DNA of 712 bases from Escherichia coli (lineage in GTDB: Bacteria; Pseudomonadota; Gammaproteobacteria; Enterobacterales; Enterobacteriaceae), in assembly GCF_003334765.1 (NCBI RefSeq), contig NZ_QOWT01000105.1, one strand, 5' to 3'. How positions within the stretch are numbered: position 1 is the stretch's first letter; every line of letters starts with the position of its first letter. A program made the translations under genes and the position numbers. The notes below the pieces were generated by a model, which saw nothing but the letters and a program-made list of their open reading frames with translations, had not been told where the DNA came from and made no database searches. Shown here one piece after another: positions 1-712 of the stretch.

Positions 1-354
1 TACACCGAAATTGATCTGAAGATTTTCCGTCAGTACCTCGCTCCCGCGCTGGGTGTAACTCACCGCTTTGTCGGTACTGAACCCTTTTGTCGCGTTACCG
101 CCCAGTACAACCAGGATATGCGCTACTGGCTGGAAACGCCGACTATCTCCGCACCGCCCATCGAACTGGTTGAAATTGAGCGGCTGCGTTACCAGGAGAT
201 GCCGATATCCGCTTCCCGGGTACGTCAACTGCTGGCGAAAAACGATCTCACGGCTATCGCGCCGCTGGTCCCTGCAGTCACGCTGCATTATTTGCAGAAC
301 CTGCTTGAGCACTCCCGCCAGGACGCGGCAGCTCGTCAAAAGACCCCCGCATGA
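1..354 (+). CDS. citC: [Citrate (pro-3S)-lyase] ligase (citrate lyase synthetase), C-terminal portion; 5'-truncated by window edge
   Basis: Frame +1 is open from base 1 to the TGA at 352-354 (117 codons: YTEIDLKIFRQYLAPALGVTHRFVGTEPFCRVTAQYNQDMRYWLETPTISAPPIELVEIERLRYQEMPISASRVRQLLAKNDLTAIAPLVPAVTLHYLQNLLEHSRQDAAARQKTPA*). The track ORF 118..354 is the same frame starting at an internal Met. The sequence matches my recollection of the E. coli CitC C-terminus, and the gene sits directly upstream of citD as in the cit operon. No start codon is visible because the gene begins upstream of the window. Confidence 0.88.
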   Translation, partial: YTEIDLKIFRQYLAPALGVTHRFVGTEPFCRVTAQYNQDMRYWLETPTISAPPIELVEIERLRYQEMPISASRVRQLLAKNDLTAIAPLVPAVTLHYLQNLLEHSRQDAAARQKTPA

Positions 355-359
355 GAAAC

Positions 360-365
360 AGGTGA
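360..365 (+). promoter_or_regulatory. Putative Shine-Dalgarno (AGGTGA) for citD
   Basis: Purine-rich AGGTGA at 360-365 in the 14-nt citC-citD spacer, 3 nt upstream of the citD ATG at 369. The spacing is shorter than the usual optimum. Confidence 0.5.
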
Positions 366-368
366 AAA

Positions 369-665
369 ATGAAAATAAACCAGCCCGCCGTTGCAGGCAC
401 CCTTGAGTCTGGGGATGTGATGATACGCATCGCCCCACTCGATACGCAGGATATCGACCTGCAAATCAACAGCAGCGTTGAGAAACAGTTTGGCGATGCA
501 ATTCGCACCACCATTCTGGACGTTCTCGCCCGCTACAACGTGCGCGGCGTACAGCTGAATGTCGATGACAAAGGCGCACTGGACTGCATTTTACGTGCAC
601 GACTGGAAGCCCTGCTGGCACGCGCCAGCGGTATCCCGGCTCTGCCATGGGAGGATTGCCAATGA
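369..665 (+). CDS. citD: Citrate lyase acyl carrier protein (gamma subunit), complete
   Basis: ATG at 369 to TGA at 663-665, 98 aa ([98 protein letters not shown]). Length and sequence match my recollection of E. coli CitD, including the conserved Ser14 (codon TCT 408-410) that carries the prosthetic group. It lies between citC and citE as in the canonical operon. Confidence 0.93.
649..654 (+). promoter_or_regulatory. Putative Shine-Dalgarno (GGGAGG) for citE, embedded in the 3' end of citD
   Basis: GGGAGG at 649-654, 7 nt upstream of the citE ATG at 662. This is typical spacing for an internal ribosome-binding site in a translationally coupled gene pair. Confidence 0.6.
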
Positions 666-712
666 TTTCCGCTTCGCTGCAACAACGTAAAACTCGCACC
701 CGCCGCAGCATG
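662..712 (+). CDS. citE: Citrate lyase beta subunit (citryl-ACP lyase), N-terminal 17 codons; 3'-truncated by window edge
   Basis: ATG at 662-664 overlaps the citD stop (ATGA, 662-665). The frame stays open to the window end: [17 protein letters not shown], which matches my recollection of the E. coli CitE N-terminus. Only 51 nt are visible, so the call rests on that match plus conserved gene order. Confidence 0.8.

Follow-up and report, generated by a model that had tools for sequence, protein, structure and literature searches.

The TCT codon under study encodes Ser14 of Escherichia coli CitD, and we consider it nearly certain (probability about 0.96) that this is the cofactor-attachment serine of the citrate lyase acyl carrier protein (ACP); the modification itself is predicted. 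The codon was read directly from the plus strand of the window, by which we mean the whole 712-nt stretch of E. coli DNA analysed here. From Klebsiella protein chemistry, we take Ser14 to be the prosthetic-group site of citrate lyase ACP. In an E. coli/Klebsiella study of 2000, Schneider, Dimroth and Bott reportedly mapped AMP-ACP and holo-ACP to serine 14; they are also said to have reported the covalent cofactor on this residue, and mass spectrometry of CitD has reportedly been done already. The mass shift expected on the Ser14 peptide is about +880 Da, as estimated from the formula of the cofactor. Clearly, the finding is already known: residue, protein and operon have all been described before, and the operon is nearly universal in E. 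coli. It matters little as a discovery, and its value is that of a sanity check of reading by sequence only, in which raw sequence alone was enough to identify correctly citC, citD and citE, the frame, the activation pathway and the number of the residue.

citD occupies the sole long plus-strand ORF with family support in the window, which starts with ATG and stops with TGA at 663-665 (Table 1). Codon 14 of this ORF, as calculated from (408-369)/3+1 = 14, specifies serine; codons 12-17 read CTT GAG TCT GGG GAT GTG and are translated to LESGDV. There are 0 stops in the citD frame, and the remaining plus-strand frames have 5 and 3. The citD frame is secure because of this difference and the full-length match of the product to CitD models. 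The original prediction had placed Ser14 within an ESGD motif at residues 13-16, and the codon, the frame and the motif were all borne out.

Upstream of citD, frame 1 is open over positions 1-351 and ends at a TGA codon. The CitC fragment encoded there matched TIGR00124 with 169.3 bits over model positions 230-335 of 335. Since the match extends to the last position of the ligase model, the C-terminus of CitC is intact within the window, as had been claimed. The AGGTG in the citC-citD spacer would, judging from the consensus, serve as the ribosome-binding site of citD, and the 4-nt overlap between citD and citE points to probable translational coupling of the two genes. Overlaps are also found elsewhere at the cit locus, between citX and citG (26 nt, L001:12643-12668) and between dpiB and dpiA (32 nt, L001:6258-6289); taken with the citD/citE overlap, they suggest translational coupling along the locus. 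A published primer, CitD-Fw, designed on E. coli BW25113 (PMC10380867), matches window positions 330-349 exactly.

Table 1. Features of the window, full-length cit products scored in a chromosome that holds the identical window (L001), and CitD-like genes without the motif serine
Feature	Position	Strand	Remarks
citC 3' end ([citrate (pro-3S)-lyase] ligase)	1..354	+	last 117 codons and TGA at 352-354; annotated citC in RefSeq
citC-citD spacer, GAAACAGGTGAAAA	355..368 (14 nt)	+	Shine-Dalgarno-like AGGTG at 360-364, 4 nt before ATG
citD, citrate lyase gamma subunit / acyl carrier protein, 98 aa	369..665	+	annotated citD, WP_000700703.1
E-S-G-D loop motif, residues 13-16	405..416	+	conservation among representatives and structural model
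TCT = Ser14, predicted attachment site of 2'-(5''-phosphoribosyl)-3'-dephospho-CoA	408..410	+	conservation and alignment with MdcC Ser25
citE start (citrate lyase beta subunit)	662..712	+	ATG at 662-664 overlaps citD TGA at 663-665 as ATGA
CitC, full length	L001		TIGR00124, 593.6 bits (cut-off 262.1)
CitE, full length	L001		TIGR01588, 452.1 bits (cut-off 443.4)
CitF	L001		814.1 bits (cut-off 501.45)
CitX	L001		TIGR03124, 204.6 bits (cut-off 105.25)
CitG	L001		NF007503, 644.5 bits (cut-off 477)
P0141	L012:8001-8285		motif KKGD; present in 61 indexed blocks of the collection
P0139	L004:92-358		motif EKGD
P0149	L005:2849-3127		motif EKND
P0085	L002:634-906		motif EKGD
P0129	L011:113-388		motif DTDD

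The 98-aa product is CitD, as predicted: it scored 100.3 bits against TIGR01608 (residues 1-94 of 94; cut-off 63.5) and 143.7 bits against NF009726 (cut-off 65), and in a Pfam scan PF06857 was the sole significant match (E 1.3e-28). We also considered an ACP of the phosphopantetheine type and rejected it, there being no match to PF00550 and the model of the protein showing a beta sheet with two helices, not a four-helix bundle. Like the ACPs of the AcpP type (PF00550), CitD is a small carrier in which a serine holds a thiol-ended cofactor via a phosphodiester; it differs from them in the missing PF00550 domain, in the cofactor and in the transferase, which is CitX rather than AcpS.

Employing HMMER, we searched 1.84 billion representatives and obtained 695 relatives of CitD, the best 150 of which, each representing one cluster at 50% identity, were aligned with MAFFT. 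Serine is found at column 14 in 133 of these 150 sequences, the exceptions being mostly fragments, and in 91 of the 102 full-length representatives among them. Because serine fills the column to this extent, the match of the window to ESGD is more than chance, and the claim that Ser14 is the conserved serine of the family holds. The flanking residues G10, E13 and D16 are near-invariant (141, 134 and 140, respectively, in the best 150 of the 695 relatives), position 15 holds S, G or N among the 150 representatives, and common motifs are ESSD (60), ESGD (14) and ESND (9). With Ser14 in AGTLESGD, the CitD of the window fits the N-terminal loop pattern G-x-x-E-S-[SGN]-D. An alignment used for profile searches (A1) was made up of Ser-containing sequences only, so its invariant S14 is circular and the unbiased figures are 133/150 and 91/102.

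A search of the PDB with the single CitD sequence gave chance-level matches only (YlbL, E 0.1). With the A1 profile, the best match was MdcC (5vit chain C); it was weak (E 0.06), and its register was clear, with G10, S14 and D16 of CitD paired with G21, S25 and D27. MdcC has the sole structure solved for this fold, and the paper on it reported no close structural homologue. The protein carries 2'-(5''-phosphoribosyl)-3'-dephospho-CoA on Ser25, which caps a loop joining two antiparallel strands, and the citrate lyase carrier is expected to be similar (PMC5534430). The AlphaFold2 model of CitD (window 369-662) had a pLDDT of 91.8 and a pTM of 0.83; in this model, Ser14 lies in the loop that joins strand 7-9 to strand 17-23. 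When the model was compared with the PDB using Foldseek, MdcC (5vit_C) gave the highest TM-score (0.71/0.71 over 90 columns) at rank 44 by E-value. The matches at the top by E-value (EF-G domain IV, RNase P protein and GHMP kinases; TM 0.5-0.57) were set aside as general fold resemblance. All of these, like ribosomal protein S9, which the model also resembles at TM 0.5-0.57, have ribosomal-protein-S5-domain-2-like folds. By the alignment of the A1 profile, Ser14 of CitD is the equivalent of MdcC Ser25. The assignment of Ser14 as the probable attachment site rests on the reported protein chemistry together with this homology.

MdcC (PDB 5vit/5vj1 chain C; TIGR03130) is thus like CitD in its PF06857 domain, in its fold (TM 0.71) and in bearing the prosthetic group on a homologous serine, Ser25, where the group is installed by MdcB and MdcG, homologues of CitG and CitX (PMC5534430). 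The two carriers differ in that they share only about 20% identity, that MdcC carries malonyl/acetyl rather than citryl/acetyl groups, and that MdcC is primed by the transacylase MdcH whereas CitD is primed by the ligase CitC; their partner enzymes differ as well.

The window is 100% identical to many E. coli chromosomes, in which it is annotated citC, citD and citE. In one of these, L001, dpiB-dpiA is divergent from citC-citD-citE-citF-citX-citG-citT, with CitE and CitF encoded directly downstream of citD. The cit genes were scored against NCBIfam curated cut-offs on this chromosome, which is 100% identical over the window and is not provably that of the source strain (Table 1). The activation pathway named in the original prediction is matched here in that both citX and citG are present above their cut-offs, so the objection foreseen there, a genome lacking citX or citG function, does not apply. 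In 5422 of 5426 complete E. coli genomes the region is found with at least 99% identity; it is absent from 4. An exact 25-nt core with codon 14 occurs in 5397 of the 5426, 25 genomes with citD have some mismatch within 31 nt around the codon, and over 61 nt around it the identity is at least 99% in 5387 of 5422 genomes. Matches to the window were located at 5466 places in 5424 E. coli records, four of these places being on plasmids; some genomes hold two, and two records match at only 80-90% identity. The extra matches probably represent a second cit locus like locus II of Salmonella or the 13-kb island of Klebsiella (PMC2735749).

The CitD of the window is the same protein as the known CitD of E. 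coli K-12 and K. pneumoniae, with a length of 98 aa, an E-S-G/S-D loop and a position between citC and citE, and no difference from it was detectable. As to the locus, citX is inside the operon in E. coli but at a separate place in K. pneumoniae (PMC2735749). A likeness also exists to the citramalate lyase ACP of glutamate-fermenting Clostridia, which have a homologous CitDEF-type complex and activation genes of the CitCXG type; there, however, the substrate is (S)-citramalate, whereas E. coli extracts high in citrate lyase were without citramalate lyase activity (PMC4682846).

In the pathway established in the literature, CitG converts ATP and dephospho-CoA into 2'-(5''-triphosphoribosyl)-3'-dephospho-CoA, and CitX transfers this precursor to the ACP serine, here predicted to be Ser14; a phosphodiester is formed with the serine hydroxyl, and apo-ACP becomes holo-ACP. 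The thiol of the cofactor is then acetylated by CitC using acetate and ATP. In the reaction cycle, CitF swaps acetyl for citryl with release of acetate, and CitE cleaves citryl-S-ACP to oxaloacetate, regenerating acetyl-S-ACP. In the model Ser14 is exposed, in a loop that joins two beta strands, so that the long cofactor arm could reach the active sites of both CitF and CitE. The roles of CitX, CitG and CitC given in the original prediction agree with those summarised in a review (PMC10798043), and the activation and reaction pathway is also summarised elsewhere (PMC10380867). We infer the chemistry of each step, and the actual modification of Ser14, from the literature.

Four other readings of the gene and the codon have to be weighed against the one given above. 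PF06857 is common to CitD and MdcC, and its Pfam name refers to the malonate decarboxylase delta subunit; the ORF also gives weak matches to TIGR03130 and NF002293. Even so, the chance that it encodes the malonate decarboxylase ACP MdcC rather than the citrate lyase ACP is close to nil, as the scores against these two models are far below their cut-offs (26.4 bits versus 84.1 and 25.7 versus 115, respectively) and the neighbours are citC, citE, citF, citX, citG and citT instead of mdcA, mdcD and mdcE. The protein being CitD, the cofactor might be attached to another residue, for example Ser35, with Ser14 conserved for structural reasons. Ser35 is indeed conserved as well, being present in at least 90% of the Ser-containing sequences of A1. 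Yet in the model it ends the beta strand 29-35, whereas Ser14 is in a loop, and it was serine 14 to which AMP-ACP and holo-ACP are said to have been mapped by Schneider et al. in 2000. The alignment likewise speaks against Ser35: Ser25, the attachment site of MdcC (PMC5534430), is aligned with Ser14 and not with Ser35. We regard attachment at a residue other than Ser14 as extremely improbable.

The remaining two readings accept Ser14 of CitD and concern what the codon means. Taken alone, one intact codon is weak evidence for function and cannot prove it, and the window holds only the last third of citC, without citX or citG. Moreover, 4 of the 5426 genomes are without the region, and the 25 genomes with a mismatch near the codon come in addition to these. 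It could thus be argued that this organism has an intact Ser14 but a decayed or silent pathway, the codon saying nothing on function. Support for function comes from the operon and the literature instead: all cit genes are full length and above the curated cut-offs in the genome holding the identical window, the region is kept nearly throughout the species, and citrate lyase activity of 0.48 U/mg was measured in citrate-grown E. coli ATCC 700728 (PMC4682846). The view that the pathway is functional rather than decayed is therefore backed both by the presence of the region in 5422 of the 5426 genomes and by activity in that strain, and decay or silence is very unlikely. Alternatively, the bases around codon 14 may also serve an antisense gene. 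In E. coli O157:H7, citC is reported to contain an overlapping gene on the opposite strand, nog1 (PMC4683798), and two antisense ORFs with ATG starts are present in the window, one at 278..514 (-) of 78 aa that spans codon 14 and one at 466-711 (-) of 81 aa. Neither of the minus-strand ORFs is nog1 itself, which by the coordinates of the paper maps to approximately nucleotides 18-323 of citC, in the 5' part of that gene and outside the window (PMC4683798). That the ORF at 278..514 is another overprinted gene of the cit operon, similar to nog1, seems exceedingly unlikely: antisense ORFs of 78-aa length are common in such sequence, and we found no family evidence for this one, no sign that either ORF is expressed and no promoter-like site on either strand. 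Nothing contradicts the reading of the codon as that of the cofactor-attachment serine of CitD, which is retained.

Other signals in the window were few. A scan of both strands against Rfam gave no match at E up to 1, and no sigma-70-like promoter was found on either strand. Four weak terminator-like hairpins with T-rich tails are located at 273-287 (+), 346-362 (-), 383-398 (-) and 491-513 (-), all of them inside or adjoining coding sequence, compared to 0.7 +/- 0.7 expected from shuffles. The longest, with 10 pairs, lies at 513-491 on the minus strand inside citD.

Among the best 150 of the 695 relatives, 11 of the 102 full-length representatives are without serine at column 14. The serine is not universal, then, and this makes it slightly more informative than expected. 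Two of the 11, P0011 and P0146, have disrupted N-termini; the remaining nine are CitD-like proteins that look intact. A motif serine is missing altogether from six of these, with EKGD (in two), EKND, KKGD, EEKD and DTDD at this place, and three have the serine one position later (DTSD, DKSD and EGSD). Lysine replaces the serine in five of the full-length representatives (n = 102). P0139, P0149 and P0085 pass the cut-off of TIGR01608 even without the serine, and each is directly followed by a citE-like gene. The genes in L012/L013 are arranged as DctM, a 77-aa ORF, the ACP, CitE-like, CitF, an HD-domain protein and a LysR regulator.

We compared the flanks of genes with and without the serine. 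The contigs of P0085, P0139 and P0129 do not extend far enough to tell whether citC, citX or citG is missing. On contigs that were long enough, genes without serine at column 14 lie in citD-citE-citF-like triplets, with one beside aconitase-family genes. None of citC, citX and citG was called within 8 kb of the six such CitD-like genes with readable flanks. citC is directly upstream of citD in the window and of two distant Ser-containing CitDs (P0041 and P0052), versus no citC upstream of the six genes without serine at column 14, a comparison of three with six that covers flanks, not whole genomes. These data fit the notion that the serine and the activation machinery may go together, a pattern drawn from a small sample (three versus six). 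A complex of the P0141 type, lacking the serine, may be citrate-lyase-like and work without a covalent cofactor. When metagenomic citD genes are annotated, the motif serine is a possible marker of the cofactor-dependent type of citrate lyase.

Several CitD-like genes were found in other settings. P0116 (L006/L007/L008:8001-8279), a CitD-like protein with TLEEKD in place of the serine motif, is encoded on animal-gut metagenome contigs. Instead of citE or citF, two aconitase-family genes directly follow its gene, an unexpected partner for a protein of the ACP fold; nearby are genes for PrpF, a 2HCT transporter, LysR regulators and oxaloacetate decarboxylase subunits. P0090 (L016:5346-9356, L017:86-3239) and P0062 (L014:7090-9854) belong to citD-citE-citF-like triplets with the serine one residue later (EGSD, DKSD), and no citC, citX or citG was called within these loci. 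One of the triplets is directly after genes for the alpha and beta subunits of class-I fumarase, an arrangement that fits a putative mesaconase plus citramalate lyase as discussed previously (PMC4682846); the other follows PTS and YdjC genes and precedes an RraA-like gene. The CitD-like domain is also found within longer proteins, namely P0102 (545 aa; residues 440-527), P0058 (410 aa; two matched stretches) and P0073 (208 aa), which could be gene fusions or miscalled ORFs.
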